A DNA stretch of 61,809 nucleotides, filler included, from Vannella sp. (lineage: Eukaryota): the NCBI GenBank assembly GCA_023345925.1. It is 7 parts of 7 records of this genome, joined end to end, with 100 filler letters (N's around TTAATTAATTAA, not from the genome) between each part and the next. Parts side by side here need not be neighbours in the genome. Positions count along the whole stretch, not along the records: positions 12,420 to 27,199 come from JAJQQN010000521.1; 6 more parts are not named here. One strand, written 5' to 3'. Below the pieces are notes generated by a model. The model did no database searches. It was not told the origin of the DNA and saw only the letters and a program-made list of their open reading frames with translations. The translations under genes were made by a program, and so were the position numbers. How positions within the stretch are numbered: the stretch's first letter is position 1; each line of letters begins with the position of its first letter. Below are positions 3,692 to 52,143 of the stretch, one piece after another.

Positions 3692-6159
3692 ATGCGGTCT
3701 GGGTGGTTGGTGGTTGGGGTCGTCTTGTTCTCGTTGATGTCGCTGTTGTTGATGGTTTGGACGGAGGAGACTCATCCTGGGCGTGAACGAGATCTGGCTC
3801 TCGAGATGGAGCGTGGAGTGCTGGGTTCAGGAGGTGCTCTTGTGGCTGAGAAGGATCTCGATGAGGATCTGGTCATGCATGGGAACTCAGGAAGCCAGAG
3901 AGAAGTAGTAGACGCATATTTGATGGAAAAGGAAGTCCCTATTGTCTCTGAATTGGCCCTAACCGACTCCACTGCCTCGAATGGAGAGAAGGAAGTTCAG
4001 TTGGGTGATGCTGGCATCATTGGTGGGTCCGAGAAAGCGCCATCTGGAATCTCTTACGGAGTAGAGATGCCTGCGCTATTGAGAAAATGCCTTCAGGCAA
4101 AGGTTCGACTACTTCCATCTCGGTCCGTGTCAGTAGAGGATCTGGAGCTCTCCCAGGCCGACTGGTTCCTTCATTTGGAGTGTAAATCCGAGGAGCATGT
4201 TGATGATGTCGAGAATACGGCCACAGACACGCAGTTCACCCGCCGCATTCCCTTTGTTGTCGATTCGGCAGAGCTTTGGTGGGATTAGCTTCCTCCTACT
4301 GTGGACTTGCACTCACCAGAATGCACAGCTTAGTGGCGCAGTTCTTTCCAGATGATTCAACTGAGGAATGTCGCTTGTCTGTCGTCGCGAGTGAGCTTTC
4401 CGCCCCTTCCTTGGAGGGAGAGGTGGCGGAATACCGCGTTGAAGAGCTCTCTGAGCTTCAAAGCAGGGCTGATTTTTGCTGGCACTGCCAAGGTGAGTTC
4501 ACTGGCCTCCATCCGGCCAAAGCTGACCTCAGAAGCTTGGCTTTACCGGGATCTTCCAACTGCTCAGCATTTCCTCCTTTATGATAACAAAGGAGAGCCT
4601 TTATGGAGAACTACCAATCCATTGGAGATAGTGAGAGGAAACCGTTTGGTAAGTGAGAAATGAAGAAGTGAATAAGTGAATTCCGGATCTCATTCCGGAC
4701 CAGACACTTTGGATCGTCCCTCATCCCGAAGCTGTGAAAGATTATCCCGATTTTCTATCTCAAGCAGGATTCAACGCCTTCTTGGATAGCTCAGAGATGA
4801 AACAGGCGGTTTGGGTGTCGCGAAAGTACGAACCCATCTCCAAAGGAAGCTCTCAACGAGGCTACCGTATCGAGGTGGAGGGTCTAGATGGCGGACAGTT
4901 TGAGCTGGTGGTAGCTTTATACTGGTTTCATTCTTCAAATGAGCCTCACGCCCACAAGGCAGAGCCCATTTTAGTGGGCTCTCACTCTTTCCACGAGTAC
5001 TCTGGCTGTGATTTACATAGAAGCGAAGTGTGGGGTTCACGAAAACTGATACATGTCCACAAAGAAGAGAACAACGATGCAACAGCGCGACCCTTGCTGG
5101 ACTTGATTGTTCCATCGAACCCCCAAAAATGCACTTCCATGAACGAGCCTGGCCGTTGGCTTCGCCATGCTGTTGGAGAGGTCTGCCGGCCTCCTTATTG
5201 CACAGGAGATCTGGCCGAAACGATTATCTCAAAGCCAAGCTGGCAGGGGATCCAAAATGGGTGGGTTTGGGTGCCTTATGCGTGCCACTATCACGCGTAC
5301 AGCCAAACGGACTTCTTGCGTTGTGCAGAGGAGAGGAATGTAGCCTGGATTCATGTAATGGGTGACTCTTTAGCACGAGAGTATGTGGGCTATCTCATGT
5401 CTCTCTTCCACAACGTGGACACCAGCAAGTTCGAATCTGCTGATGTTCAGCTGGGAAGCGGAAAGGACTCAATTCGCCTCACTTTCCAGAGCTGGCAAGA
5501 TGTTATCTTGTTACAACAGGGCGCAAGCAACCGTTCCGGAGACTTTACTGAGACCATGCTTAACCATTGGAACATTCTTGGACCCGGCGCTTCGACCCCT
5601 CTCGAGTTTCCTAAGTATCGCTTAAGCATCCCTGACACAGAAGTGACCCGACCAGATGTGTTTATCATGAATCCTGCAACAGCCTACTCTCTCTTCAAGC
5701 AGACAGAGCCAGTAAGCAGCTGAGTGTGGGAGAGTGTTGCTCATCTTCCTCGGCAGGCATTCCGGTCGTATGTCAAGTCATTTGCTGATATGATGAACCA
5801 TTCCAGCTCTTCAAAAGGATCCCCGCACATCTTCTGGTACCATGCACCGTTCCTCTTTGGAACCGCTCATGAAGGAACTGAGTTCATCACACAAACTCGC
5901 AACGAAAGATTCTCCCGCATTGCACAGTACGGTCACTCCAAACGACTACAAAGAGGCTTAAAGTGACTCACTTCACACTAGGGAGGAGCTACAAGGGACT
6001 AGAGTGAGATACTTTGACAATATGGACTTATCGCAAAGCCGTCCCGAAGAGTCTTGGGACGGTTTGCACTTTCTCAGCGGATACGAAGAGTGGACCGGTC
6101 ATGTGGCTTGCTCATACGTTCAGAGATGGCTGAACGAACTGTTTGGTGAATGCACTTAA
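3692..6159 (+). CDS. Type II membrane SGNH/PC-esterase-like (TBL/NXPE/CAS1-type) putative O-acyltransferase, paralog 1, 5 introns
   Basis: N-terminal signal anchor; W.W.P..C followed by VMGDSLARE (GDS) and C-terminal WDGLHF (DxxH). Confidence 0.7.
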
Positions 6160-6218
6160 GTTCTCTGGAGGAGGTGGCGGGAAGGGCAGGGAAAAGGGAA
6201 TCATTGTGGCGTGGGAGG

Positions 6219-8735
6219 ATGCGGCTGGCGTGGCTGCTCCGGGGATTGGTCCTGTTCTCGGCACTTTCGGTGTTTATGCTGATGCTGGAGGAACAGGATA
6301 CAGGGAGAGAGTCTGCAAAGGTGTTCCAGAAGGCCTTTCGAGGGAGGAAGATGAAGCCCATGTTGGTGGAAGTGCGCGGAGTCGAAAAGGAGGACCCGGC
6401 TCCGGACTTGTCCCAGCTCTCTGACGCTAGGAACACTTTGATCCATCAAGGAGACATGATAAGCTCCTTGAACCCGGGAGAAGAGGCCCCGTTTACTGCT
6501 GAGGACGGGAAAGGTGTTCCTTCGTTGACCTTGAGGGAGATAGAGGCGGATTCCTCCCACATGGACTTGAACCAAGGGAGAAACGATGAACTGAGAGGCG
6601 ATTTGACCATCTCCTTCGAGGTAGAGATGCCTGAATTCCTCCAGAAATGCTCCCGGGCTGTTTTTCGGCTTCTTCCTACTCAGACTCGGCTTATCTCACC
6701 CAATGAGCTCAGCCAACATGACCACTACCTCAACGTACAGTGTAAAGGCACAGTGCCTCCTGACGCGGCCACAAGCATGGCCAAAAGCATTCGCTTTACT
6801 CGCCGCATTCCCTTCATCGTCGATCCTGTGGGACTTTGGTACGCTGGACCTTCAAGTGAGATACAGAGAGTTAACAGAAACTCAGCCTGGAAGCTGCCTT
6901 CTTCCCAGATGAGTCTACAGAGCACTGCCAAGTGAATGTGGTTCGAAGTGACCTTTCTGCTGCTCCGTTGGAAGGTGCTGAGGTGGAGTTTAATGTGGAA
7001 GAACTCTCTATTGACCGGGCAGAGAACGAGTGCGGGATACATTGCAAAGGTGGGTCCTCTGGGATTGTCTCTTTCATAATCTCACTTGGAAAGGTTGGCT
7101 TCATCGGGCGCTTCCGACTGCTCAGCAGTTTCTTCTTTATGATAATGACGGATCTCCGCTGTGGAAGAGTAACAGTCCATTGCAGCTGACAAGAGGAAGC
7201 CGGCTGGTAAGAGAGAAGAAGTGAATAAGTGAATTCCGGATCTCATTCCGGACCAGACGCTTTGGATCGTTCCTCACTCCGAGGTTGTGAAGACCTATCC
7301 CAAGGCGGTGTCCAAAGTGGGCTTCAACGCCTTCTTGGATAGCTCAAAGATGAAGCAGGCGGTTTGGGTTTCGCGAAAGTACGAACCCATCTTCAAGGGA
7401 AGCTCTCAACGAGGGTATCGCATCGAGGTGGAAGGCCTTGATGCAGGCCAGTTTGAGCTTGTTGTTGCGCTGTATTGGTTTCATTCATCAAGTGAACCCT
7501 ACGGGAAAGAGGCAGAACCCATTTTAGTGGGCTCCCACTCCTTCCATCAATATTCTCCTTGTGACTTGAAGAGAAGCGAAGTGTGGGATTCCAGAAAGCT
7601 GATTCATGTCCGCATTGAGCCTCTAAAGAAGGGAAAGAGGGAATCAACGCCTCCATTGGACTTGATTGTCCCTTCAAAGCCTCGAAAGTGTACTTCCATC
7701 AACGAGCCTGGCCGTTGGCTCTGGCATGCACTTGATGAAGAATGCCAACCTCCAATCTGTACCGGAGACCTCTTCGAGTCTCGAATCAGCCAGCCCAGCT
7801 GGCAGGGGGCTCGCAGCGAATGGGTTTGGGTGCCTTACAACTGCCACTACCACGCTTATGACCGGGCGGACTTTCTTCGGTGCGCAAGAGAAAAGGACAT
7901 TTCTTGGATACACGTGATGGGGGACTCTTTAGCTCGCGAATACGCGGCGTATCTGATGTCTCTGTTCGGCAACGCAGACACAAACAAATTCGAGACTGCT
8001 GACGTTCAGCTCGAAGATGGGGGCGACTCTGTGCGCCTTAGCTTCCACTTCTGGCCGGACATCATCTTTTCTAATGAGGGAGAAATCTACCGAGACGCTA
8101 ACTTCACTCGAACCATGCTGGACCACTGGAACATTCTGAAGCCTGGAACTTCAAGTCCACTTGAGTTCTATGAGATGCATGTGAGCTTGCCTGGCACAGA
8201 GAAGACTCGGCCAGATGTTTTTATAATGAACCCAGCGACAGCCTACTCTCTTTACATCCAAACAGAACCAGTAAGTTGAAAGCAGAGATGCATCTTGGTT
8301 CTGCTTCTCACTCTTCTGACTTTTCCACTCTTTGGCAGGCATTCCGATCGTATGTCAAGTCATTTGCTGAGATCGTTGGGCGTTCCAACTCTAGGAAGGG
8401 ATCCCCACATATCTTCTGGTACCAAGCGCCCTTCCTCTTCGGAACTGCTCATCCTGGAACGGAGTTTATCACACAAACTCGCAACGAGAGATTCTCTCGC
8501 ATTGCACAGTAAGGAATGAGAAGTTGGGGAGGAGAGGTGTGCTGATGCTTGGCTTAGAGAAGAGCTTCGGGAAAGTCGAGTGAGGTACTTTGATAATATG
8601 GACTTGTCTCAGAGCCGTCCCTCCGAATCCTGGGATGGATTGCACTTCCTCAGAGGGAAAGAAGAGTGGCACGGGCATGTCGCCAACTCCTACGTCCAAA
8701 GATGGCTCAACGAGCTATTTGGTGAATGCAATTGA
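6219..8735 (+). CDS. Type II membrane SGNH/PC-esterase-like putative O-acyltransferase, paralog 2 (tandem duplicate)
   Basis: Same exon structure and motifs as 3692-6159 (VMGDSLARE, WDGLHF); starts only 59 nt after the paralog 1 stop. Confidence 0.7.
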
Positions 8736-8897: not shown

Positions 8898-11800
8898 TCA
8901 CTCTTTGTTCGTGGAGCGAAAGTTGATTCCGGTGCGGCGCTCAATGTCCAAGTCAAGTTGGTGGGCCCTCCAACGGGCGTATCCTTCGATGAAGATGGTA
9001 CTCAAACCGACAATGATAATCGCAGCCCCGACCAAGCCCAAGGACACCCACGGCAGGATGTTATCGTGGCTGACGGAAACGCAAGGGTCAGAGCTTTCAG
9101 CTGCTCCACCTGAAAGAAGAAGGGCAAAGTTTGTGAGATGGCCCGTCTCTCCACAGAAGAGTCCGTCCTTCTTCCCAGTGTTAGTGAGACATCGGTCCTC
9201 ACAAACCCACTTGGATTTGCGCTCATCGTAGTAACTCAAGCACACTCTCTCATGAGAACCAATCGTCGCTGGGGGTTCCAAGCAGATGGTCAACGGGTTA
9301 GCAAGCTGAGTCACTGGATTCCCAGTTCCATCGAAGAGGGTTATGTCCAAGATTGTACTTCCCAGTTGCTGGTTGGACAAATTCGCAGGAATTTTGGAAA
9401 CGTACGTTATACTGAGAGTGGCGTTTGAGGACCCATTCAACTCTGAAGGTAGCGTTGTTCTTCCTACGAGATCTCCTCCGGGTGAGAGGAGTTCAAGCAA
9501 AGTTGGGAGGTTTCCTGCACTAAATGCCGAGTTGACGGTAACTTGGGAGACTTCGCAATCAGTGCATCCTCTTGTCAGGCTTTCTAACACAGGATCTACC
9601 ACGAAGGAGCCAGAAACTTGAGCAGTACTTGTCGAGGCTGCAGTGGAGCTCGGGTTTCCCGTCAATACCGCAGTTTGGCGCTCAAAGCTTGGAGCTGTGG
9701 CCTTTGAACTACTTTCGCTCAAGAATGAGCTACTCTCCGAAGAATCGTCAATACTGAAGGTTTGAGACATTGTCTCACTAGAACGAGGCGAGATACTTGA
9801 GCTTAGACTGGGTGATTCGTTGGCAATGTCACTGGGATTTGCAGGGAAACTGACGCTAGGAGTGGCGGCCACAGAAGCAATCACAGAAGACATGGCACTG
9901 CCCGGCAGTGATACACTTTCTCTGAGGCTCAATGCAGCGGTACCACTGTTTGATTCACTTGTAGTCTCACTCGCGCTTGCCGTCTCAGTTTGGTAGGCAA
10001 CTTTACTGCAGGTTTCAGTTACGCTTGCACTTGGGAAGGAGCTTTGGGTCCCAGTTATCGAAAAAGAAGAAAGGCTGGTACTGGCGCTTTCAGAGTGACT
10101 TGCGCTTGAACTTGCAGAGGCACTCAGGCTTTCACTTTCAGAGTGACTTCTACTTGGACTGGCGGAAGGACCGACGCTCGCGCTTTCAGTAGGGCTTAAG
10201 CTGGGACTGACAGAAGAGCTGCGACTTCCACTTTCGGATTGGCTTCGACTGGGACTAGTGGAAGAGCTATCACTGTCACTGGCACTTTCGGAGGGGCTCA
10301 TAGTTGGAGTGGGAGGGGGGCTGGCACTCACACTTCTGGAAGAGCTTGTAGTGGAACTTATGGAGGGAGTAACACTCGCGCTTCTAGAGGGACTCACACT
10401 CCCATTGGCAGAAGAGCTTGAACTCGGAGAAAAGCTGGCACTTTGGGAAGATGTCCCACTTTGGCTGTTGGTAACTGTAGAGCTTCCACTGGGTGAGAAA
10501 GTCGCAGTATCACTACTGGTCATGGTGGGAGAGGAGCTGGAAGAGGTTGTGAAACTCGCAGAACCGCTTCTCGAAGCGCTGGAACTTGGAGTGGCCGTCA
10601 TCGTCGGAGTAGAGCTTGGACTGACAGACTCGCTAACAGAAGAGCTGGAGCTGGGACTTTGAGAAATAGTGGGACTGAAGGTAAAGTTGACACAAGTTCC
10701 TCTGGTCTCGTTGCAAGTCGCTCCCGTGTATTTCAAAGGCAGAACCGAGCAGTTGAAAAACTGACTTGTCAGGTCGAGTGTAGCGTTGTTAGGAGACGGG
10801 TCAGGAAGCGGCCCACAAAGTTGATTCCCGCCAAGAAAAACAGTTCCGAGGCTGGTCCAAGTTGGCCAAACGGGCAACGTTCCAACCAGAAGATTACCAC
10901 TCATGTCACTGCATGGGATGAGTGGAGGTCCTGTCGCTTTTCAAGAAGACTCACAGATAACTCATCTTACTGAGCTGAGCCCAGTCCGGTAGATTCCCTG
11001 AGATCTGGTTTCCGTCTAATTTCCTGGACAAGGTGTTAGATAGATTCTCCTTATCATGCATTTAGGGACTCGCTTACAAGCTGCCCAACAAGGAAAGGGA
11101 AGACCAGAGTGGAAGCGTTCCGTTCAAACTGTTGTGGCTCAGATATCTGTGACCCAAGGTCAAGTGAATAAGTAGAGAATCCGAGAAGCAAACTTACATG
11201 TTGACAAGCCCAGTAAGGGTGGTCCATTGCGGTAGAGTTCCAACGAGAAGAGGATTGTAGTACAATGATCTACAAGAGCAGCTTAGCCGATTGGTCCAGA
11301 AGTATGGGGAAAGCTACTAACATCACACGCAGAGCTGTGTGGCCAGTCCACTCAGGGATAGTTCCATAAATTTGAGTCTGCCCAATGTTCCTGTTGCCCT
11401 TCCCGTCAGGAATACGAGGGAATGAACTAGAAAGCCCCACATGTTGGAAAGCTTCGTTAGATGAGCCCAATCCGGAAGGGTTCCAGTAAGTGCCGAGTTT
11501 GATTGCAGGAAGCTAGTCCATCCCCTGTGAACCTCTTGCCTTTGAGAGGAAAGAATACGAACATCAGGCTGAGTTCAGTGAGATTTGGCCATGTGGGAAT
11601 GGTGCCCGTTAGCTGATTAGCACTAAGAGTACTGCACTTGCCAATTAGCATCTTCCAAGTCGGATCAACGCACTCACATGGAACTGAGTTTGGCAAGGTT
11701 CGGCCAATCCGGGATGGTGCCATTGAGTTGTCCGTTGTACAACCTACTGAGAACATGCATTCAGCGAGATTCCTCCGTGAAGCAGGGACGAGGGGCTCAC

Positions 11801-12195
11801 ATGTTTACCAAGTTTACCAAGTTTGGCCACATTGGGAGTGTACCAGTGAGAGCGTTGTTATGCAGATCCCTGTCGTACCAAGATTAGGAGCGTCTCGAGG
11901 GCGGCGAGGGTCCTTACATGGCTGAGAGGTTAGGAAGCAAAAGATCCGGAAGTGTCCCCTTCAAGAGGTTGCCAACCATAACCAGAGAGGTTACTGTTGT
12001 CAGTGATCCGTCACAAGTCACTCCAAACCAGGCAGGAGGACCACAAGGGTCCGCGGACAGGTTCCACTTGTTGGTCCAAGAAGCCCCCACGGTGGACGTG
12101 TGGAGGTCAATCAGAGAGTTCTTCTCATACGAAGGAACAGCACACAGCACCAGCACACTCATTCCGAGACAAAACGCCCAGCGCGTCACCATCAT
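8898..12195 (-). CDS. Single-pass receptor: signal peptide, LRRNT and LRRs, Ser/Thr-rich stalk, GAIN/GPS, one TM, short tail
   Basis: MMVTRWAF signal; W..SADPC...WFGVTC LRR cap; about 8 single-LRR exons (LxxNxLxGxxP); about 300-aa S/T stalk; GPS W.C....LFCGETGHLTNFALLL; TM WVSLGLVGAAIIIVGLSTIFI. Confidence 0.85.
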
Positions 12196-13924: not shown

Positions 13925-16264
13925 TTAGTGCGCCAAGAGAAGCTGGCGAGTAGCATCAAAGCCAATGATGAGCTTGCTGGACTCATCCTTCACAACGCAA
14001 TTGGATTGGAAGACGATTCGCCCTTCTTGCCAGCCGTTGAAGGTTCGCAAGTCGTTGATGACTTGCTGGGAGCCAAAGTAAGGGTGGGATATGACTTGGT
14101 TGTCGTGGAAATCGTGTCCTAAAGTGACGCACTCAAAGCTGTTGATGAGCATGGAGTGCTCTTGGTCCAGAACAAAGCTGAAGACTGCTTGGCACTTTCG
14201 AATGGAAGGCTCAGCAAGGTCTAAGGGGAAGGTCCAGACTCCATTGACACGGATGGGGTGGTAGGGAGTGATTTCAAGCTCTCCCAGTTTCACCAAGTCA
14301 GTCTGGTTGTTCTCGCAAAGGGTCTCGATAACGCATCGCACTGTCGCTTGACGACCAGATCCACTGCGAATGATGTCTCCTTGTTGGATGGCATCGCATC
14401 GCTTCAGGCTGCCATCTGACATGAGGACAAGGGACTGGCCACTGAAGCAAGGATTACTGGAGCAGTGGTATGCATTCATCGAGGAAGGTGCAGAGTAAGA
14501 ACTGGACGAGCCATACGAACTGATGCTGCGTGAAGGCTTTGGTGGTGGCAAGGAAATAAAGATCTCGTCGGTCAAGTCCCGGACCTCATTAAAGAGATGG
14601 CCCCCGTAAAACTGCACGCCAGGGTCCTTGAAGTTATTGCACTGCTGCAAAAGGTGCGCCCTGGCCAGGGAAGGGAGATAATGCCTCCCCCACTTGCTAA
14701 AGTAATCACATTTTGATGTTGCCACTGAAACCTGTCCTTCAGCGTCCTTCAATAACCCCTCTACAAAAGGATCAGAAGCGAATGGACTTGTGCGCGTTGT
14801 TTGAATCCACTTCTTGACAGCCTCATGGATGCTGTCCAGTTCTGACTTGCTGGTAGCAGTGGAGGCGATGCACTCCTGAATCAGATGGACTAAACCCTGA
14901 CGCATAAAGGAGCTTTCTACTGCAAGCGTCCGCTCTTGGATGTCTGCAAGACACAGTTCAGCAGTCAGGCGGTCCGGTTTTTGACCTGGGCTGTATCCAA
15001 GAATAGTGCGATACTCAGCGGTGACGGTGAGCAAAGGTTGCGCTGTGGATTCCTTTCCAGAAGTGGCATTCTTGGGCTTGAGTTCGAAGACAATGTCACG
15101 AGACTGTCCAAAATGGAGAGTCCCAAGAGAGGCAGTCATTCCCCACGACGTAGCAGTCACTGACGGGTGACTTTTGTAACCCACAGCTTCAATTGTGAAG
15201 TCAGATGAAGGCTCAAGAGATAGTGTGACATTCTTGGCCTGGACTGAAAGCAGATTGGAAAGAGCATTCACAAACGCAGTCCCAACAAAGGCGCTGTCGG
15301 GAATGAAGGAATACATTCCGTCACCAACTTGTGCAATCTGCTCCAAAAGCTGGCTTTCCATGTAATAGCCAAAGCCAAACGTGTTGATGGTGCAGCTTAA
15401 TCCGTGCTGATCAAGGTAGCGACGGAGCATGGGAATGTGGCCACGAGGTGGCTCAATGTTAGGCATCCCGTCCGTCAAGATAAAGACCGATTGAAGGCGA
15501 TTGGGCAGCTGGTCTTCTCGAAGAGTGTTCATTCCTTTCTCAAGCCCACCCCAGAGGTTCGTTGAGTCTTCCGTCTGAAGCGCCTTCAGCACCAAGTCAG
15601 CAGCAGCTTTCCCTTCAGGGTTCATGTGAACGAGAGAGAGGACTGTTACAGCCTCAGTACTGTACTTGACAAGAGAGAGTCTGTCGCTTGGCTCTAAAGA
15701 GCTGATGATCGTGGCTACCGCGTGCTTGACCACATCCAAGTACGACAATCCGTGAGATTCGCTCAATCCAGAGGCGTTTTGGAAGGTGGCTTCCGATTCC
15801 ATTGACCCAGAGACGTCAATGACGCAGCAGATGTCAACAGGTGTGCGTTTCCCTTCCATATCAGGCTTCAACGAAGCCAACACGTGAAACCCACCTCCAA
15901 CACTTGGGCTGGAAGACAACTGGAGCTCTATGCCAGAGGGCACGGGCGGGATTAGGATCGGGAGGTTCACGGACGATGCACTGGGTAAGGCTATCGCTTC
16001 AGTAGAGGCTTCAGCGATGATGGCGCCTCCGTTAGGGAGAATCTCTGCGATAAGATCCTTCAGGGCTCGGTTGGGAGCGAGAGAGCTCAAGGACAGGGGA
16101 GTTCTTGTTATGGGGGACGTTGTATTCTTCTTCAACCACGTCTCAATCGCAGATCGCTCGTAAGTGTTCCCTTCCGGATCCACAACAGGGTCTGTCATCA
16201 CCTCGTGGGTCAGCGGGCAGTAGAAGCTTTCAGGGACCGTCTCAGGAGCTGTGTTAGTCACCAT
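13925..16264 (-). CDS. U-box-VWA-Vwaint-Hint (Vint family) protein
   Basis: U-box FYCPLTHEVMTDPV...TYERSAI...SPITR; VWA MIDAS DVSGSM and LTDG; NNFKDPGVQ Vwaint; Hint N-terminus CFSGQSLV, ITPYHP (TxxH), CVTLGH and HPYFGS. Confidence 0.9.
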   Translation of the reverse strand: MVTNTAPETVPESFYCPLTHEVMTDPVVDPEGNTYERSAIETWLKKNTTSPITRTPLSLSSLAPNRALKDLIAEILPNGGAIIAEASTEAIALPSASSVNLPILIPPVPSGIELQLSSSPSVGGGFHVLASLKPDMEGKRTPVDICCVIDVSGSMESEATFQNASGLSESHGLSYLDVVKHAVATIISSLEPSDRLSLVKYSTEAVTVLSLVHMNPEGKAAADLVLKALQTEDSTNLWGGLEKGMNTLREDQLPNRLQSVFILTDGMPNIEPPRGHIPMLRRYLDQHGLSCTINTFGFGYYMESQLLEQIAQVGDGMYSFIPDSAFVGTAFVNALSNLLSVQAKNVTLSLEPSSDFTIEAVGYKSHPSVTATSWGMTASLGTLHFGQSRDIVFELKPKNATSGKESTAQPLLTVTAEYRTILGYSPGQKPDRLTAELCLADIQERTLAVESSFMRQGLVHLIQECIASTATSKSELDSIHEAVKKWIQTTRTSPFASDPFVEGLLKDAEGQVSVATSKCDYFSKWGRHYLPSLARAHLLQQCNNFKDPGVQFYGGHLFNEVRDLTDEIFISLPPPKPSRSISSYGSSSSYSAPSSMNAYHCSSNPCFSGQSLVLMSDGSLKRCDAIQQGDIIRSGSGRQATVRCVIETLCENNQTDLVKLGELEITPYHPIRVNGVWTFPLDLAEPSIRKCQAVFSFVLDQEHSMLINSFECVTLGHDFHDNQVISHPYFGSQQVINDLRTFNGWQEGRIVFQSNCVVKDESSKLIIGFDATRQLLLAH

Positions 16265-16427: not shown

Positions 16428-17970
16428 ATGGGGAACGGTGCAAGTCAAGTCCTTCAGGAGTGCAAGAAGGCGGGAGGCACTCGATTGGGTGTTAAATAAC
16501 TGTTTGTTGAAGGAGATTCCTTCCAAAGCTTTGGTAGGAATGGACCTTGAGCTCCTCAACGTGGAGGGGAACAAGTTGGCGGAGCTTCCCGAGGCCATTT
16601 GTGCGCTCTCTTCGTTGATAGAGCTCAACTGCTCTTCTAACCGGATCAGAACTCTTCCGCAAAATCTGGAACAGTTGAAGACACTCCAGCAGCTCCTCCT
16701 CCATCACAACAAGCTCGAACAGCTACCAGAAGGAGTCGGCAACCTCGCCCAGTTGCAGCTGCTGCACGTGGCAGACAACCGCTTGGTCTCTTTACATTCT
16801 AGCATTGGGAGACTAAGCTCACTAACGGCTCTCTTCTTGGAGGGGAACAGCCTACAGGCGATCCCACCAGAGATCGGCGAGCTTGGCTCTCTCACTTCGC
16901 TGAACATCGCTTCCAACGCCATTTCACTCCTACCACCTGATATTGGGCGTTTGACCAACCTTGCTTGCCTTGTCGCCTTCAGAAACGGGTTGTCCTCGCT
17001 CCCATCCGAAATTGGCCAAATGAGTTCCCTGGCCCTCCTGGATGTGTCAAACAACTGCTTGGAGGTTTTACCAGCAGATCTAGGACGGTGCATATGGCTT
17101 AGAGAACTTAACGTGTCAGAGAACGCTTTGGTGTCCCTCCCAAGCGAACTTGGTTTTTGTGAGCGTTTGGAGATCCTCAAACTCTCTCATAATCAACTGG
17201 AGGAGCTACCTGAATCATTGATAGGGATATTGAGCCTAAAAGAGTTGCACATCGCGTTCAACCAACTCACAAAACGGCCAGAATCCCAGACTATAGACCA
17301 GTTGGCACTCTTCGTGTGTGATGGCAATCCCTTCATTCAAGAGGAGTTAGAGTACTCTCTATGGGCTGCTCTGTCCATGAAGAACTCTTTCACAAAGTAT
17401 TCGCGGAAAAGGAAGTCCCAATGTCGATTGGTGTTCGACCACTCGACAATGCGCTTCATTTGTTTTTGCAAAGAAGTCAACCTGGGACCTGAGGAACATG
17501 AGTTCATGCTTGTTCGAGAGCTTTCTGAGGTCTTGGTTGGTCGCTGCACGTCGCGTTTGCGGCGCCACGGAAAAAGTGAGAAATGTTGCTTCTCGCTTGT
17601 GTCTGCTTCTGTCAGTTTCGAACTGGAAGCGGATTCTGAGAGTGAGTGCGCAATGTGGGTTGCTCTCTTCCAGCAAACAATTGCTTTCTATCGAAAGTAT
17701 CCCACGCCTCTTCCAATGAAACAACCCAGTGAGGGGTCCATGGAGCCAGATTCGATGCACGATATCCAAGCCACCAAAAACGAGCAAGGGGAGCTAACAA
17801 GCCAAGTTCCCTTGCACCAGAATCAATATCAGTACCGGTCTTACTACTCGAACAACCGTAGTTTGCCCAAGGGTTGCATTTGCAGGGTTTTCGTGTTGAT
17901 TTGGTGGGCGATGATCGATTCATGGACGAGGAACTACCAAGCCTACTATCCAAAGCGCCACCTCGATTAA
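16428..17970 (+). CDS. Leucine-rich repeat protein with C-terminal PH-like domain; apparent +1 frameshift near the N-terminus
   Basis: About 12 LxxLxLxxNxL repeats; FTKYSRK...FSLVS...FELEADSESECAMWV PH-like region; MGNGAS start is out of frame with the main ORF. Confidence 0.8.
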
Positions 17971-19622: not shown

Positions 19623-21718
19623 ATGACTCCCCTCCACCGTGCTTGCGTGCGGGGAGATTTGGAGGCGGTTGGGTTGGAGTTGGAGCGAGATTCGGGGCAG
19701 TTGGTTGTGCTGGTGGGTTCAATCAGGGAGTTAGTGATGGTACTAAGAGTCTGCATGGCGTAGAGCGAGGAGACGACAAGGTTTGAGGATGCTGAGGAGG
19801 CGGAAGTGGCCAAAAGTTCTCCGTTACATGCTGCGTGTCGATTGGGTCACTTCGAGGTGGTTAAGAAGTTACTTTCTCATCCTGGTGTTGACGTGAACCT
19901 ACTTGTGAGGCCATTGCATGGCTGTTTCCTCTCACTAACCCGTCGGTAGTGCGAGTTTCGGGTGTGACGCCTTCTACTCTTGGTTCTAGTTGATCTACTC
20001 ACAGAAAACCAGAAGGGGAATGCTCTACATACAGCACTGATCCAAAAGCACGAAAGAATCGCCCTGCTCCTTATTGACGACGGGCGCGTTTCTCTCCTCC
20101 AAGAGGTTTGGTGCAGCTGCGCTTGACTTTTACTCAAACGAAGGATGCCAGGGAGATAACAAAGAACTTCCAATCCTTTTGGCTGCAGATGGGGGCTTCC
20201 TCAAAGTTATTGAGGTTCTTTTGGAGAAAGCCGGAATTGACCAGATTCTCCAGCAAGTGAGTTCCTTTCAAAGGTTCCAGGAACATACTCCTGGCACGCA
20301 TAACTAACACATTTTCGGAAGGATGCCAATAAGGTATTCAGGAAGAGTCTTCTGATGGCAGTTGTTTTACTAAGTCAATAGGTTTCCCCGTTGGAGGCTG
20401 CGCTTGATCAAGAACACCACGATGTGGCCCGGCTTTTGATGAAGCATGGAGGAGACGATTTGCTTGCACTACGGGTTCGTACTATCAAACGGTCTGGATG
20501 GACTGAGTCTCACCGACCTGGGCATGGACCAGAATGATTATGGGGTCAGTAACTATTTCCAGTGAGACAGGCTGAGCTCAGCGGATTCCTTAGGATACAG
20601 CATTGATGTTTGCATGCGCCTTGCAATCGGAGGAAGCTGTGAGATTGGTTCTAGAGTTTACCAAACCTTCTCATTTGACTGAAGCTGTGAGATCAATCCT
20701 TTGATTGTTCGAAAGCAGATTCTAATCGGGAGTAGAATGATATGGGAGTTGGTGATTCTCTCCTCTGAAGGTTAAATGGGAAACTGACTCAAGGAAAGGA
20801 AAATCCGGTTCATTTGGCTGCTTCTTGGGCCTCTTCTGAACTTATGAAAGATCTTTTGAGCTCAGGAGTAGCAGAGGCACTCGAGATGAAGGTAACATTG
20901 AGACGACGGGTGGCGTTTATTGATATTGGTGTGGTAGAACCATGCGGGTAATATTCCATTATTCAACGCTGTACAGAACGAGGACCCTCAGTGTGTTAAG
21001 GCTATGCTCGAAAAAGATCCTGAGCACATCCACTGGGAATGTGTGATGGGAGTACGCGGGTAGCATTGAAAATTCCACTCTTGACTCACTTCTATGAGTA
21101 GAGAACTCCATTAACTCATGCTATGGATGCTGGTACCCCCTCTGTGATCCAAGCAATGCTTGAAATGACAAAAGAACCGGAAGATATCCATCGTTTCTTC
21201 TTCATTGCCTGTGAAACCAGTTTGGCTCTAGTAGAAATGATGGACCGCGCCTTTGGAAGCGTTCTCAATTACTCCAATCAGGTACCTTTTGCTACCTTAT
21301 GGTTTTGCGCCCTTCTCTAAGAATCAGCAAAGACAGAGTACAAAGAAACGGTTCTTCATTATGCCTGCCGTAGCAATGACCCATCCATTGTCAAGTTTCT
21401 TCTCGAGAAAACTGGAAAGGATCTCATTGTCATCCAAGTGAGTTCATCTCGTCTCTTAAGAAGCAAAACCACTCTAACGTTATGGCATTAAGGATGAAGA
21501 CGGGGTGAGTTAGCTCTGAAGTAGGGTTTCATTTTGTTACTTAATTGCAACAGCGGACTGCCCTAGATGAAGCTGAAGGTAACGAACAGATAATCCTCCT
21601 TCTGAAGAGCAAATTAGAAACACCTGCGGAGACTACCGGCAAAAGCAGTGGACAATCTACCCGAGGGCAAGAGGCCAAGGAGATTCCGAACCCACCCAAA
21701 AAGCCGAAGCCAAACTGA
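19623..21718 (+). CDS. Multi-exon ankyrin-repeat protein (about 9-10 repeats) with five 12-nt microexons
   Basis: Hand-spliced phase-0 exons: MTPLHRAC, SPLHAAC, GNALHTAL, LPILLAA, SPLEAAL, TALMFAC, NPVHLAA, IPLFNAV, TPLTHAM, TVLHYAC, TALDEA; all GT-AG. Confidence 0.85.
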
Positions 21719-29170: not shown

Positions 29171-29800
29171 ATGAGGAGTGTTGTCCTTTTGGCTATCTTT
29201 GTTGCTGTTGTGGTGGCGGATGGGTGTCCACCGGTGGGTACCCAGGCTGATTTCAATGTGACCTCGTTTGTGGGGAAGCCTTGGTTTGCGCAGATGGCTC
29301 AGCCTGTGGTGTACTTGACGCCGAATGATCTGTACTGTGTGAGAGCGTCGTATAACTTGACCTCTCCCACGACTGTGGCGGTCAACAACTACGCCAATGT
29401 GGGCCAAATCAACGGACCTGTGAAGGGAGGAGACCTTTGTGCTGTCATTAAGGATCCCTCAGACCCCGCTAAGCTCTCTGTTGGTCCCTGCGAGCTTCCA
29501 AGCAACTTCTACGGCCCCTACTGGGTGGTATTTGCCGGTCCCTCTCCCTCCAACTACGAATACGCCATCATAAGCGGCGGCCAACCTTCCGTTAACACAG
29601 GCAAAGGATGCCGCCCTGGTTATGGTGTGAACGCGTCAGGCATCTTCCTCTTCTCCCGCACCCAAGTCGCTCCCACCCAACAAGTGAACATGCTTGTCGC
29701 CCAATGCGCCCAGCTTGGCTTTGATACGTCCATCCTCCGTCCCATTGAACAGCGTGGATGTGTTTACCCTTCTCTAATACACTTCCCCTCGCCCGCGTGA
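29171..29800 (+). CDS. Secreted lipocalin (ApoD-like), paralog 1
   Basis: Signal peptide; DFNVTSFVGKPWF, YWVV, YEYAIISGG, LFSR lipocalin motifs. Confidence 0.85.
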   Translation: MRSVVLLAIFVAVVVADGCPPVGTQADFNVTSFVGKPWFAQMAQPVVYLTPNDLYCVRASYNLTSPTTVAVNNYANVGQINGPVKGGDLCAVIKDPSDPAKLSVGPCELPSNFYGPYWVVFAGPSPSNYEYAIISGGQPSVNTGKGCRPGYGVNASGIFLFSRTQVAPTQQVNMLVAQCAQLGFDTSILRPIEQRGCVYPSLIHFPSPA

Positions 29801-29863
29801 TGGAAGCTCCGAACTTCGGGCGTTACGTTGGTCAGAAGACTTCCTTCAGTCGTACAACTCCGC

Positions 29864-30481
29864 ATGAACGGTAAGTGCTTGTACGTGGCTCTGTTTGTAG
29901 TGCTTGTGGGTGGCTCGTGTCCCGTGGTGAACGTGCAGGATGGCTTCAACGTGACGCAGTACGTGGAAAGGCCTTGGTTCGCTCAGATGCAGATGCCTGT
30001 TACGTACCTTCCCCTGGATGGCTTCTTCTGCGTAGCAGCCAACTACACACCTACAGGACCTAGCTCTATCAACGTGTACAACTACGCGAACAAGGGCGAG
30101 GTGAATGGTCCCGTCACTGGTGCGAAGCTTTGCGCTGTCATTCCTGATCTGTCTGTGCCTGCTAAGCTCTCTGTGGGACCTTGCCAGCTACCTTCGTTCC
30201 TATATGGAGCCTACTGGGTTGTCTTTGTCGGCCCTGATCCCGCCAACTACGAGTACGCGTTGGTCAGCGGAGGACAACCCACCATTGAGACTGGGAAAGG
30301 CTGTACCACTGGTTCTGGCAGGAGTAACTCAGGCCTTTGGATCCTTACGAGGAGTAGCACCGTATCGCCTACACTGATCGATCAGATCCTCTTGCAAGCA
30401 GCCGCTCTTGGCTTTGACACCTCCGTCCTCGTCCCTGTCGTCCAGCAAGGATGCTTGTTCCCTCCTCCCTTCTCGTCCTAG
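29864..30481 (+). CDS. Secreted lipocalin (ApoD-like), paralog 2
   Basis: Tandem paralog: FNVTQYVERPWF, YWVV, YEYALVSGG, LWILTR. Confidence 0.85.
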   Translation: MNGKCLYVALFVVLVGGSCPVVNVQDGFNVTQYVERPWFAQMQMPVTYLPLDGFFCVAANYTPTGPSSINVYNYANKGEVNGPVTGAKLCAVIPDLSVPAKLSVGPCQLPSFLYGAYWVVFVGPDPANYEYALVSGGQPTIETGKGCTTGSGRSNSGLWILTRSSTVSPTLIDQILLQAAALGFDTSVLVPVVQQGCLFPPPFSS

Positions 30482-32315: not shown

Positions 32316-34577
32316 TTAAATGTCCACTGTGGGAGCAGGCACGTCATCAGGCAACTCGGGTGCATCACCAGTAGGAACATCTGTTCAAAAGAGTCACTAA
32401 GTGAGAGTGTGAGGGAGAAGGGGCTGGCTTACCAAAATCAGGCATCTTATGGAGAGACTCAAGCCCCAGTACTTGTTCTCGGTGATGAGTGAGAGCGGCC
32501 AGAGCAGAAATTTCGCTGCGAGAGAGTGCCTTGACCGTTCGCAAGTAGTATTGAACGGCTGGTTGCGGCCGTAGAACATAGCTTGCCTTCTGATAGCGCT
32601 GAATCTCTGAGATGACTCGCGCCACCTTCTTAAACTTGAGGAAGTGGATCTGAGAGGGACTCGTAGAAGAGGAGTCCAAGAAGTTATCCTCTTCCAGTTC
32701 CAAACTCTGAATCTCCATCAAGTAGGCCTGCAAGTAAGGTACACCAGGAGAGGTACTCTTATAGAGCTCTTGCTTCAGATTGGCAAAGTGCCCAGCTTTG
32801 GAAACGAGTTTGCGAAGATCCAACAAGATTGGAACGTACTTTTGACTGATCCCTTCCCATGTGCCATCGAAGCGCAACATGAGAGTGTCTTCGATGGCAG
32901 CCATGATTTGCATGACAGCATTGAAGTTTCGAAGATCTTTGCAGAATTTGGCGATTTGAATGAATTTGGAGAGCATTACGGGCCGCTTGGGCTTGTCCAA
33001 CTTGTTGATGCTCGTCATTACCCAGTTGCTCACTAATTGGAAGCGATCTAAGAACTGAGTCACGTTGGGAGCGGTAATGTGCTTGTCATTGTCCATCCAA
33101 GCCCTTTCTTTGGGTGAGTAGACAGTCTCTTAACACCCAAAGTAGCTTACAAACGGAGGAGTTCTTGTGGTCGGATAGCTTGGAAGAGTGCTTGGTCAAT
33201 CAGGGTAAGTTGTCGAGCAATTTCTTTGTCGTCCAAGTCATTCAAAGTGAGGAAAGCAATGTCTTGCTCTGCTGGAGCAACAGGATCGGGAGCACCATCT
33301 AAAAGAATCCTTCGAGGCATCAAATGGATCGTCACCTGATTGCGAAGGAGCGCCCGGATACGATTGCAGTCGACTTGGAACCCGCTTTTGATAATGGGGG
33401 TATCCAGGAAGGCTAACAGCACCCTCTGGGACTGGCCATCACCATGAAGATCATAAAAATGGTTGCTAATCCAGCTCTCCATTATCCCCAGGATGCTATT
33501 CTCTCAGTCAGAAAAGGGGAAATATCTCCTATCATAGATTAGACCACTTACTTCTGCTGGATAGAGTATTCCCCTCTATTAAAAGTACAAAGTGAGTTAA
33601 GAAGAACGAATAACAGGGACAGGAGAGAAGGAGGAAGAAGGCTGGAAGGATATTGTTTGCTTAATTCTCAGATGAAGAGAGCAGGCGTACAAAAGGCCCG
33701 ATAGCAAAGGATCCACGCATTCAAGAAAGTTGATGTCGACCCTATCACTCACAAGAAACTCAACTAGCGCCTCAAAAGTGCCTCCGGTCACTCCTTGAGT
33801 CTCATTGCGGACGAGTCCCGGAAGAGCACTGGTAAATGCAATAGGAGGAAGAGCTAACAGAAGCTTGCTCACTTCAATTTGTTGGTCCTGAAGGGCGTGG
33901 ATCTTCCTTTGGGCCACAGAGATTTGGAATTCACTGTAACTCTCCCTCAGATGTTCCGTTCTCTCCTCCAACTGCAAAACAGAAGTCAAAGTACGTCCCC
34001 ACTCTGTTGTATCTGACTCTCGCTCATAGCAGCGAATGGGATGGAAGGATTTCTTCTTCTCGTCAATCATAGGCACAAACTCTGTTGGTAATATGCTCCT
34101 TTTAGGCCCCTACAGCAGTCCTTGGTGAGCTCCCGAGTCACCTATATCCCTTCTATGACTTACGTTGCCCATGAAAGCGGAGGAGGAGTTGGTCAGCTGC
34201 TTCATGAGCGAGGCAGAACCCACTTGAATGGCATTCGCCCATTCCATGGCCGCTGGGAAGGTGACTGCATCCAATCGGAAGGTCTTTCCAGGTGTAATCA
34301 GGGTGAAGGTCTCTGGAGAAGCGGGGTCATCCTCCACTTTGACGCCGCATGACTGAAGGACGATGATGTCGTGGGCTTTCATGTCCTCTCGAGTGGCGTA
34401 GAAGTTGATAGTGGATGCTTCAAGGACCACCCACGTCTTCTTCGCCTTCTTTTTGTCCTTCCCACGCAAGTTGAGATAACCCCTCTTCTGTCCTCAGAAG
34501 ATTTTGCGCAGATACTTCTCTGCCACCCACATGCTTCGCTCTTTGGGAGTCGCAGAGGATGAAGGCTTGTTATAGCC
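32316..34577 (-). CDS. PH-domain RasGEF (REM + CDC25), 5' truncated by contig end
   Basis: PH (GYLNLRG..KKTWVVL...MEWANAI); REM (GGTFEALVEFL; ESWISNHFYD); CDC25 (EIARQLTL, NFNAVMQI, PGVPYL, FLKF). Confidence 0.9.
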
Positions 34578-37121: not shown

Positions 37122-37149
37122 AACCCTAAACCCTAAACCCTAAACCCTA
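37122..37149 (+). repeat. (CCCTAAA)x3-4 telomere-like/telo-box tract in a bidirectional promoter
   Basis: AACCCTAAACCCTAAACCCTAAACCCTA ends 6 nt before the ATG at 37156. Confidence 0.85.
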
Positions 37150-37155
37150 GCCTCA

Positions 37156-38853
37156 ATGTTGGCGTGTATTGCTTTCACTCTCGTCCCTTGGAGGATGCGG
37201 TTTCCCGATTCTGCTCAAATAGAAAAGTTGAACAAAGTGGTGATCGTCCCATTTTTTTCTGGATGGGAGACAGGGGGCTGTCTCCGCTTGACGAGCACCG
37301 CAATGCTGTGCAGGGGTCGCTTTACAGCCCAAAGAACTTCTCAGATGCAGTTCTCTTCTTGGAAAAGTTTCCGAGCTATCTGAACGTTTATGTGAGGAGG
37401 GAGCCATCAGACTCTTCCTCGCTAAAGGGCCTCGCGTGTTTAACTCCACCATCAAGTGATTAAGAAACTGACATGCATGTAATTAGGAAGTATGCATGGG
37501 ATTGTCGCCCTAAACCTCGGTTCGTGCCATGGTAGAGTGTTAATCGATTGGGGATGTCTTTAGGGGGTCGGTTGCTCATTGATTCCTCCTCCTCTCTCAC
37601 CATTCTGTGCAGGAGGTGAGTGATCTATCGTTCGAGAACAGGCGAGATAACCAGTACCCCACTCGAAGGAAGTAAGTTACATCCTCTATGAACAAGCAAG
37701 ATGGTCAGTGTCTGACCAGAACGTATTGTAAAGGAGGTAAGATTCGGAACTATCCAACTCATCTTCCATCTTCTCAATGAGTTTCAGAACGTAAGTTTGA
37801 GAGAAGTTGAGCTCTTGCTGAGAGTATCAGGGGGTGAGTGCGAGCAGCCAACAACTCTGTGCTTGCCTCACTCGATTCTATTGTAGTGGGTGAGTGAGCC
37901 ATGGCATTTGGTATTCGGCGGCAGAACAAACCATTGTGCCAGACATTCCTGGGCATCGCTTGTGGACAGGGAATTACAGAGAACGTGGTTCGTTTGCTCT
38001 CTTATCGTGGCATTGATGTCCAAAAGGGAGTGAGACAGGACCAAACTTTTTGTGACATGTTTACTGATGCAATCGGATAGAGAGTAAGAAATCAAGCCTT
38101 TGACTTCCGCAATACTGAGGCCATGTCGTAGGAAGTAAGCTTGATTCTGGATGACTGTAACTCACCGATTTATAGAGAGTGAGTGGTTACCCGACCAGAG
38201 AATTGCCCTCTCGCTGATTTCCTCCATAGAGAGTAAGTTATGGCCGTTTATGATCCCTTCTCACAAAAATAGGAAGTAAGTGGTCGACCTTACCTAACAA
38301 TCTCCAGGAAGTTCTTAATTCTTGATATATTGTAGTATGTGAGTTGCTGCACCATCCCGAAACTGAAGTGTATCCTCTGACATGGACATTCTTAAGGGGG
38401 TAAATAAGAAAGAAAGCAAGCTCTTCAAAGTCTGACCTGTGTAGGTGGTAAGGATGTTATTTAGGAGGGACCAGTGAAAGCCTCTGAATGAAATCTCAGT
38501 GTGTAAGTCATATTTCTCTCTTCAAAGCAAATCCTCAAAGGCCCTATAGTTTGTAAGTTTCTCTCTGCTGTAAAGGAAGAGTTGAGTGCTTATGTAAGGT
38601 CAAAGAGCCCTTTGGACTTGGCTATGATCCACAAGAAACACCATCTCATCCCATTGCTTCTTGCCGCTGGATGTCGTTGCATCACTGTAATCCCTCCGTT
38701 ATTCCCATCCGTCACTGACACCTCATGTAGGAAGGCAGACACCTCGAAAAGTTCTCCATTCAGAACGTCCCAAAGCCGATCAAGAAAGTCAGCTTTTTCA
38801 GGAGGGCCATTTCATCTCTGAAGCCGCCAAGAGAAGAACAACAGGAACCCTAA
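37156..38853 (+). CDS. Small ankyrin-repeat protein whose two hairpin loops are encoded by 18 single-codon microexons
   Basis: Exons 37156-37163, 37223-37391, eight 3-nt exons (37487-37889), 37943-38029 (TFLGIACGQG...LLSYRGIDVQKG), ten 3-nt exons (38081-38552), 38606-38686 (SPLDLAM...LLLAAG), 38731-38853; all GT-AG, frame maintained. Confidence 0.85.
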
Positions 38854-41280: not shown

Positions 41281-41300
41281 AGGGTTTAGGGTTTAGGGTT
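41281..41300 (+). repeat. TTTAGGG telo-box tract upstream of MTMR14
   Basis: AGGGTTTAGGGTTTAGGGTT about 70 nt upstream of the ATG. Confidence 0.75.
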
Positions 41301-51802: not shown

Positions 51803-52143
51803 CCTTTGTTTGGGGTTCGATGGATTCTGGAAGCACTCCCCTTCACTATGCAGCGCTCAGAAAGGATGCTCGCTTTGTTCGCTTCTTGATCCACCAAGGA
51901 CTCGCTGTCGATTCCCGCAATGTCTATGGAGAAACCCCTCTCCATTGGGCCGCCAGAGCTGGGCATGTTGACACATTTAGTCTCCTTCTTTCTTTCGGAG
52001 CGGATCTGAAGAAGCTGGACACAAGTCTGAAATCGCCCCAGGATTGGGCCTTGGAGGAAGGTCAAACTCATCTTATTCGCCTTCTTCACCCCAGAAAGGA
52101 CAGATCCTGGACCCGTTTCTGGAGCTCCTCTGTTTCCAAGTGA
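51803..52143 (+). CDS. Ankyrin-repeat protein (intronless here, probably 5' truncated)
   Basis: GSTPLHYAA, NVYGETPLHWAA, KSPQDWA. Confidence 0.85.

Follow-up and report, generated by a model that had tools for sequence, protein, structure and literature searches.

Predicted four-codon exons at the beta-turns of an ankyrin-repeat gene from Vannella sp.

Why would a gene set the same four-residue turn apart, as an exon of its own, in one ankyrin repeat after another? The question is raised by a locus in the 61.8-kb window (the whole stretch of DNA that was analyzed), which comprises seven contigs with N-spacers between them and contains three ankyrin genes. A sequence-only reading had described five exons of 12 nt in one of these genes, and we found all five in place, each between an AG and a GT. 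Here we consider whether such exons could be accidents of sequence, how they might have arisen, and whether they are likely to be skipped.

The gene model and its 12-nt exons

The genes of the window have short GT-AG introns, as in a compact eukaryote. To model the gene at 19623-21718 (+), we listed the acceptors for each candidate donor, and one consistent model resulted: 443 codons over 16 exons, with the stop codon at 21718. All 15 introns are GT-AG, are in phase 0, and are 45-65 nt long, and every one of them lies directly 5' or 3' of a four-residue beta-turn. The predicted features are:

19623..21718 (+): ankyrin-repeat gene with 16 predicted exons, from the gene model, Pfam, and the gene finder
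19623..19712 (+): exon 1, first repeat core; the start codon is inferred
19764..19904 (+): exon 2, acidic loop of 17 residues plus core; Pfam Ank above the cut-off
19950..19961 (+): 12-nt microexon CEFR; a rival 6-nt form would use the acceptor at 19955
20013..20105 (+): exon 4, core of 93 nt; a rival acceptor lies 3 nt downstream
20152..20256 (+): exon 5, 105 nt, the turn GDNK fused with a 93-nt core; upstream intron only
20322..20333 (+): 12-nt microexon DANK
20382..20474 (+): exon 7, core of 93 nt
20533..20544 (+): 12-nt microexon NDYG, with the weak donor GTCAGT
20594..20686 (+): exon 9, core of 93 nt
20736..20747 (+): 12-nt microexon NDMG
20799..20891 (+): exon 11, core of 93 nt
20938..21051 (+): exon 12, turn NHAG, core, and turn CVMG
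21102..21281 (+): exon 13, one core plus an intronless degenerate repeat
21333..21437 (+): exon 14, 105 nt, the turn TEYK plus a 93-nt core; Pfam Ank above the cut-off
21493..21504 (+): 12-nt microexon DEDG
21554..21718 (+): exon 16, last partial repeat, tail, and stop codon

Together these exons encode about 11 repeats, one degenerate repeat, and a low-complexity tail. Four of the core exons are 93 nt long and two are 105 nt, or 93 + 12, so turn length is the same whether the turn is fused to its core or split from it. We scanned 11 exons with Pfam; the five 12-nt exons were left out because they are too short. Two exons matched Ank (PF00023) above the cut-off (33.4 and 28.1 bits versus 21.1), six matched weakly, and three had no match. 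Exon 14 also matches solved ankyrin structures. We expect the protein to be an ordinary ankyrin scaffold for binding other proteins, with repeats of 34-35 residues.

Two changes to the model were tried and rejected. An intron of 36 nt at 19781-19816 would shorten the loop in exon 2, but it scores below zero. An upstream extension that was proposed by the gene finder overlaps the divergent neighboring gene. This neighbor (19563-19516, -) apparently begins with a bare ATG (19563-19561) that is followed directly by an intron of 45 nt, and its start codon is 59 nt from that of the ankyrin gene.

We took the repeat register from the consensus ankyrin repeat, in which Asp1 and Gly4 bound beta-turn 1 at positions 1-4, as described in PMC4308713. 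Positions 1-4 are the span of the 12-nt exons, whose translations are CEFR, DANK, NDYG, NDMG, and DEDG. It had been claimed that each microexon is a D/N-x-x-G hairpin: this is true of NDYG, NDMG, and DEDG but not of CEFR or DANK, although four of the five begin with D or N. DANK has only the Asp of the turn, without the Gly. CEFR fits neither the D/N start nor the full motif and was placed by its register; tandem acceptors flank it on either side (19949/19955 and 20012/20015). If the four fused four-residue turns are considered as well, Gly ends three of the five microexons and two of the four fused turns, and it is absent from CEFR, DANK, GDNK, and TEYK.

Could the 12-mers be chance or decayed signals within single introns of 108-125 nt, or could the gene be unexpressed? 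One long intron would keep the frame in all five gaps, two of the flanking introns score at or near the floor of the control range (1.8 and 2.8), and a 12-nt AG...GT spacing, at any score, appears in 131-358 of 3000 shuffles (4-12%). However, no in-frame split scores higher than the 12-nt exon in any of the five gaps. When the interior of each gap was shuffled 3000 times, an equally good in-frame exon arose in 10, 64, 69, 13, and 15 of the shuffles (0.3-2.3%), and the product of the five probabilities is 3.5e-11. D/N-x-x-G within a 12-nt exon arose in 1-4 of 3000 shuffles per gap, yet three of the five exons encode it. Also, the length of 12 nt recurs five times, turns of the same length are fused to cores at four other places, and the frame of 443 codons is intact through 16 exons. 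We therefore consider accidental signals, or an unexpressed gene, to be very unlikely.

A gene finder gave a similar model. It was self-trained on the window with both of the intron-bearing ankyrin genes left out (65 training introns), starting from six introns of gamma-tubulin that were defined by homology. Its branch-point seed did contain 7-mers from the 19623-21718 gene and was later re-estimated on non-ankyrin introns. The gene finder recovers 14 of the 15 introns and four of the five microexons; it overlooks the donor of NDYG, at 20545, which is the weakest of the microexon donors. Internal exons of 15 nt or less account for 5 of 14 in this gene and for 0 of 47 predicted in the non-ankyrin genes, but the gene finder, which allows introns of up to 135 nt, misses the window's ankyrin gene with single-codon exons (described below) and so under-calls microexons. 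Outside the ankyrin genes, just one internal exon does not exceed 30 nt: a predicted exon of 24 nt at 33552-33575 (-), behind a pyrimidine-rich intron of 115 nt; from reading its translation, we take the gene to be RasGEF-like.

Phase also sets the gene apart: 15 of 15 introns are in phase 0, as compared to 22 of 57 in the non-ankyrin, non-LRR genes of the window (P = 6e-7). All 15 are at the two boundaries of the turn. Intron placement is tied to the repeat. Overall, the 12-nt layout is real and unusually regular, with junctions that are predicted from sequence.

Close relatives were not found. When exon 13 was compared to 1.84 billion proteins, there were 11 matches, and apart from a fragment of the gene itself, these were 28-42% identical. 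The protein collection represents the genes of the window as single-exon fragments only, which suggests that standard pipelines mis-call such genes. For other genes of the window, no named relative of gamma-tubulin is above 67% identity among the 240 matches listed, and the Atlas yielded only generic clusters of tubulin. The first named matches to 3-hydroxyisobutyrate dehydrogenase are from Acanthamoeba, Balamuthia, and Dictyostelium (56-59% identity), which points weakly to Amoebozoa. Unnamed relatives of two housekeeping genes are 75-86% identical. We also searched for the two-intron turn as a pattern (two short introns around a D/N-x-x-G exon, followed by x-T-P/A-L-H/D). The window has one match, at the DEDG locus, and 100 shuffles have none. 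Metagenome contigs yielded 11 loci, about the number expected by chance, and all 11 were without ankyrin context; as the window's own locus was not among these matches, the collection is uninformative about lineage.

History of the turn introns

Five junctions have both introns. Four have just the upstream one (the loop of 17 residues in exon 2, GDNK, NHAG, and TEYK), one has just the downstream one (CVMG), and one has neither (the degenerate repeat in exon 13). So, the claim that the other repeats retain one of the two flanking introns is correct for five junctions and fails for the degenerate repeat. Since these states adjoin in a single gene, the locus is well suited to testing how introns are lost within repeats.

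We think that the five predicted 12-nt exons are separate beta-turns that probably descend from old tandem copying of a two-intron repeat, with some of the copies then losing one intron. The ancestral repeat would have borne a phase-0 intron on either side of the turn and would have been copied in tandem long ago. The unit of duplication would be a core exon, an intron, a turn exon, and another intron, or roughly 210 nt, and the single-intron junctions would reflect later, patchy losses. A tree that would distinguish loss from gain is precluded by the short length and divergence of the repeats; we infer loss as the simplest history.

The copying cannot be recent. Repeat cores are 6-40% identical as proteins, the six 93-nt cores are 27-51% identical as DNA, and pairs of introns of the same class score 11.6 and 12.1, as compared to 12.2 for control introns. 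We rejected recent duplication or gene conversion because both the introns and the repeats are too diverged. We also rejected insertion at proto-splice sites: AG/G is found at 2 of the 15 sites and at 6 of 61 controls, so it is not in excess.

The same exons could have another history, in which the turn repeatedly acquired introns, or in which each 12-nt exon is what remains of single-codon exons that were fused when their inner introns were lost. That the introns share no sequence would fit either of these, and the pattern of both, one, or no introns suits gain as well as loss. However, if introns were placed randomly, then 15 independent insertions at 2 of 105 positions would have a probability of 6e-27, which makes repeated gain very unlikely without a targeting mechanism, and the sites lack the proto-splice motif. 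As for fusion, Drosophila sowah (FBgn0036302) combines a 12-nt exon with 3-nt exons: its microexons include ME119 (12 nt), ME3 and ME2 (3 nt each), and ME19 (6 nt), and its annotated exons include ones of 12, 3, 3, 6, and 27 nt (PMC8042270, in particular Table S4). In the window itself, the other two ankyrin genes allow a comparison:

37263..38686 (+): predicted ankyrin gene with arrays of single-codon exons
51803..52143 (+): ankyrin gene with three uninterrupted repeats at a contig edge

The gene at 37263-38686 has two arrays of predicted 3-nt exons between ankyrin cores (8 exons in one array and 10 in the other), with 20 introns of 40-95 nt. As had been noted, it is on a different contig from the 12-nt gene, and N-spacers separate them. 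Its array donors are strong (GTRAG at 17 of 20, versus 31 of 61 controls), and both arrays hold more codons than the canonical turn needs. In support of fusion, introns interrupt the turn region of this gene at each codon boundary, and both of the sites that are used in the 12-nt gene are among them. On the other hand, the arrays end before Thr/Ser, so that the last intron is one codon past any downstream intron of the 12-nt gene, and the two genes are not specially related: the best core pair of the 12-nt gene is 40% identical with the single-codon gene and 44% identical with the intronless gene, and 300 cross-gene intron pairs average 12.3, versus a background of 12.2. Altogether, repeated gain or fusion seems unlikely, and we prefer copying of a two-intron repeat.

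The same comparisons show no special kinship to support the proposal that the 12-nt exons are an intermediate or ancestral state of the single-codon arrays. Also, intron loss from a single-codon array would look the same, so the "ancestral" order cannot be oriented: a 12-nt exon could split into codons, or codons could fuse into a 12-nt exon. A broader proposal, that the architecture extends across the gene family, is true to the extent that both of the intron-bearing ankyrin genes place introns in the beta-turn region, but it rests on three genes. The third of these was described as intronless, which holds for the three visible repeats; the gene starts at a contig edge.

The single-codon gene has some further peculiarities. 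After the Gly, there are three consecutive codons (Val, Cys, and Phe) where one is expected, as if they were alternatives for position 5. The first intron (37392-37486, +) is 95 nt long, about the length of two normal introns plus one codon, and it contains an AG and then a Gly codon, with no GT after it; this might be a dead single-codon exon. The plant-type telomere unit occurs inside contigs, as three copies of CCCTAAA at 37124-37144 and two copies of TTTAGGG at 41285-41298. The run at 37124-37144, which we take to be similar to a telo-box, sits between two divergent genes.

Skipping and shuffling

Loops and whole repeats had been proposed to be separately skippable or shufflable. Every possible skip in the 19623-21718 gene does keep the frame, but a working system of this kind is not supported. 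There is one exon per turn, the introns are dissimilar, and skipping would require long introns: 108-125 nt to omit a turn, or roughly 260 nt to omit an entire repeat. A six-frame scan of the window, with a profile built from 16 cores, returned just those cores (the next match had E = 0.086) and revealed no ankyrin exons that are spare, broken, or inverted. Among non-ankyrin introns from the gene finder, 61 of 65 are 41-68 nt. Among the longer predictions, two have scores close to zero and two others, of 90 and 115 nt, are possibly genuine; introns of 74 and 95 nt are required in the single-codon gene. With introns of 74, 90, 95, and 115 nt predicted in the window, a length of 108-125 nt would be unusual but within possible reach.

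The microexon donors are weak. With exon bases included, four of the five (at 19962, 20334, 20545, and 20748) are below the 5th percentile of 61 control donors (P = 0.002), and from the intron bases alone, three of the five are below the 10th percentile (P = 0.022); these controls were chosen by the same model and lean strong. Such weak donors, which are common in cassette exons, would fit some skipping.

Nevertheless, we read the microexons as mainly constitutive, and weak donors are more likely to lead to retention than to skipping. This reading follows from the long introns that skipping needs, from the single exon per turn, and from two general tendencies: retained introns are much more numerous than cassette exons among fungi and most protists, in a trend that tracks intron length (PMC2397502), and short flanking introns, as reported in PMC8378409, ease the inclusion of microexons. 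A spliceosome suited to small introns would recognize every intron singly (intron definition), and a 12-nt exon would be included by default, at no cost. Splicing errors would then chiefly retain introns and truncate the protein, as retention of any one of the 15 introns does in our model. Frame-safe skipping would be a by-product of gene copying, and any function for it would be hypothetical.

The alternative is that splicing diversifies the protein: the turns, along with the tandem acceptors at CEFR, would be included or skipped combinatorially to vary the binding surface. This would be a coarser form of the mechanism described for nank in truffles, where NACHT-ankyrin genes are diversified by alternative splicing of codon-sized exons (PMC4986451, PMC3689799, PMC13449251), and five cassettes would give at most 32 isoforms. 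Besides the precedent of nank, a diversifier would account for the frame that survives all skips, for the weak donors, and for the surplus of codons in the nank-like arrays of the sister gene. Also, the 12-nt exon carries positions 2 and 3, which along with position 5 are among those randomized in designed ankyrin binders (PMC4308713), so skipping, if it does occur, would let splicing vary positions that engineers randomize to alter binding. However, with one exon per turn and no alternatives, a skip would remove the conserved Asp/Asn and Gly rather than swap residues. Skipping would require the long introns discussed above, the window lacks spare ankyrin exons, no NACHT or other signaling domain was found in the 11 exons scanned, and protists with small introns rarely skip exons. 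We consider a splicing diversifier to be quite unlikely, and we favor constitutive inclusion.

A more elaborate version would be a graded splicing system, in which this gene would use weak-donor cassettes of four codons and its sister would use single-codon arrays, both to generate repertoires of isoforms. The 12-nt form would then be the missing step from exon-per-repeat genes to a codon-by-codon diversifier of the nank type, and it would have been reached independently of fungi and animals, in an amoeba-like lineage. This seems decidedly improbable.

Similar architectures elsewhere and in the window

First, the 12-nt gene resembles nank of Tuber in that tiny, frame-preserving exons divide an ankyrin-repeat gene. 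As nank is described in the sources cited above, it differs in several ways. The exons here are four codons long, with one per turn, and alternative splicing is a feature of nank. The NACHT domain that precedes the repeats in nank has no counterpart in the 11 exons scanned. Also, nank has tens of 3-nt exons, whereas this gene has five exons of 12 nt. Finally, nank belongs to an enlarged family of paralogs; the window has three ankyrin genes in 61.8 kb. The single-codon gene, with 18 predicted 3-nt exons, is similar to nank in kind and is far closer to it than the 12-nt gene is.

Second, sowah is also an ankyrin-repeat gene with a phase-symmetric exon of 12 nt, and the two exons that follow it specify Gly and Tyr, in keeping with the end of the turn. 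In the data that accompany PMC8042270, the 12-nt exon of sowah occurs once and stops before the Gly; in the Vannella gene, the exon would include position 4 and is found in five repeats. A 3-nt exon after the 12-nt exon, as in sowah, was found at none of the five sites. Orthology is not suggested.

Third, tandem-repeat genes commonly have exons that cover entire repeat units, as expected if exon-intron units are duplicated (PMC3995336). Exon borders follow the repeat units in the 12-nt gene as well, but unlike the genes described there, its unit is two exons (93 + 12 nt), and the two introns are 12 nt apart.

Fourth, ROCO-LRR and NB-ARC-TPR loci of brown algae are reported to recombine actively, with spare, inactivated, or inverted repeat exons within their introns (PMC3341825). 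Like those loci, the 12-nt gene has symmetric phase-0 exons of near-constant length (93, 12, and 105 nt). Unlike them, it has two exons per repeat, and it lacks the spare exons that are described in that account: none were found in the window scanned, and introns of 45-65 nt would leave no room for one. The gene works like an exon-per-repeat gene with a two-exon unit. It is not a nank, and there is no sign of active shuffling.

In the literature searched, which did not extend to subscription papers, we found no report of a four-codon turn exon that is repeated along one ankyrin gene. Going by the descriptions of truffle nank and animal sowah that we used, the Vannella gene would add a third, distant lineage (likely amoebozoan) in which microexons cut out the ankyrin beta-turn.

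The habit of one exon per repeat is common to the ankyrin gene and to a gene for leucine-rich repeats (LRR) at 8898-12162 (-). The LRR gene has eight internal exons of 66-72 nt and nine introns, all in phase 2. Its predicted product is a surface protein in which each exon contributes one leucine-rich repeat, and a long Ser/Thr stalk comes after the repeats. Its LRR exons have a mean identity of 45%, and its introns are unrelated. A second LRR gene (16540-17970, +) is intronless, which parallels the intronless ankyrin gene.

Other genes of the window also lack introns or are duplicated. The gene at 13925-16264 (-) has 780 codons and no introns; its product may contain U-box, von Willebrand A, and C-terminal Hint-type domains, which it resembles. 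There are two tandem pairs of genes, at 3752-8512 (+) and 29171-30481 (+). The first pair has matching exon sizes (164, 113, and about 1010 nt). The second pair comprises two intronless genes for secreted proteins, which we take to be lipocalin-like.
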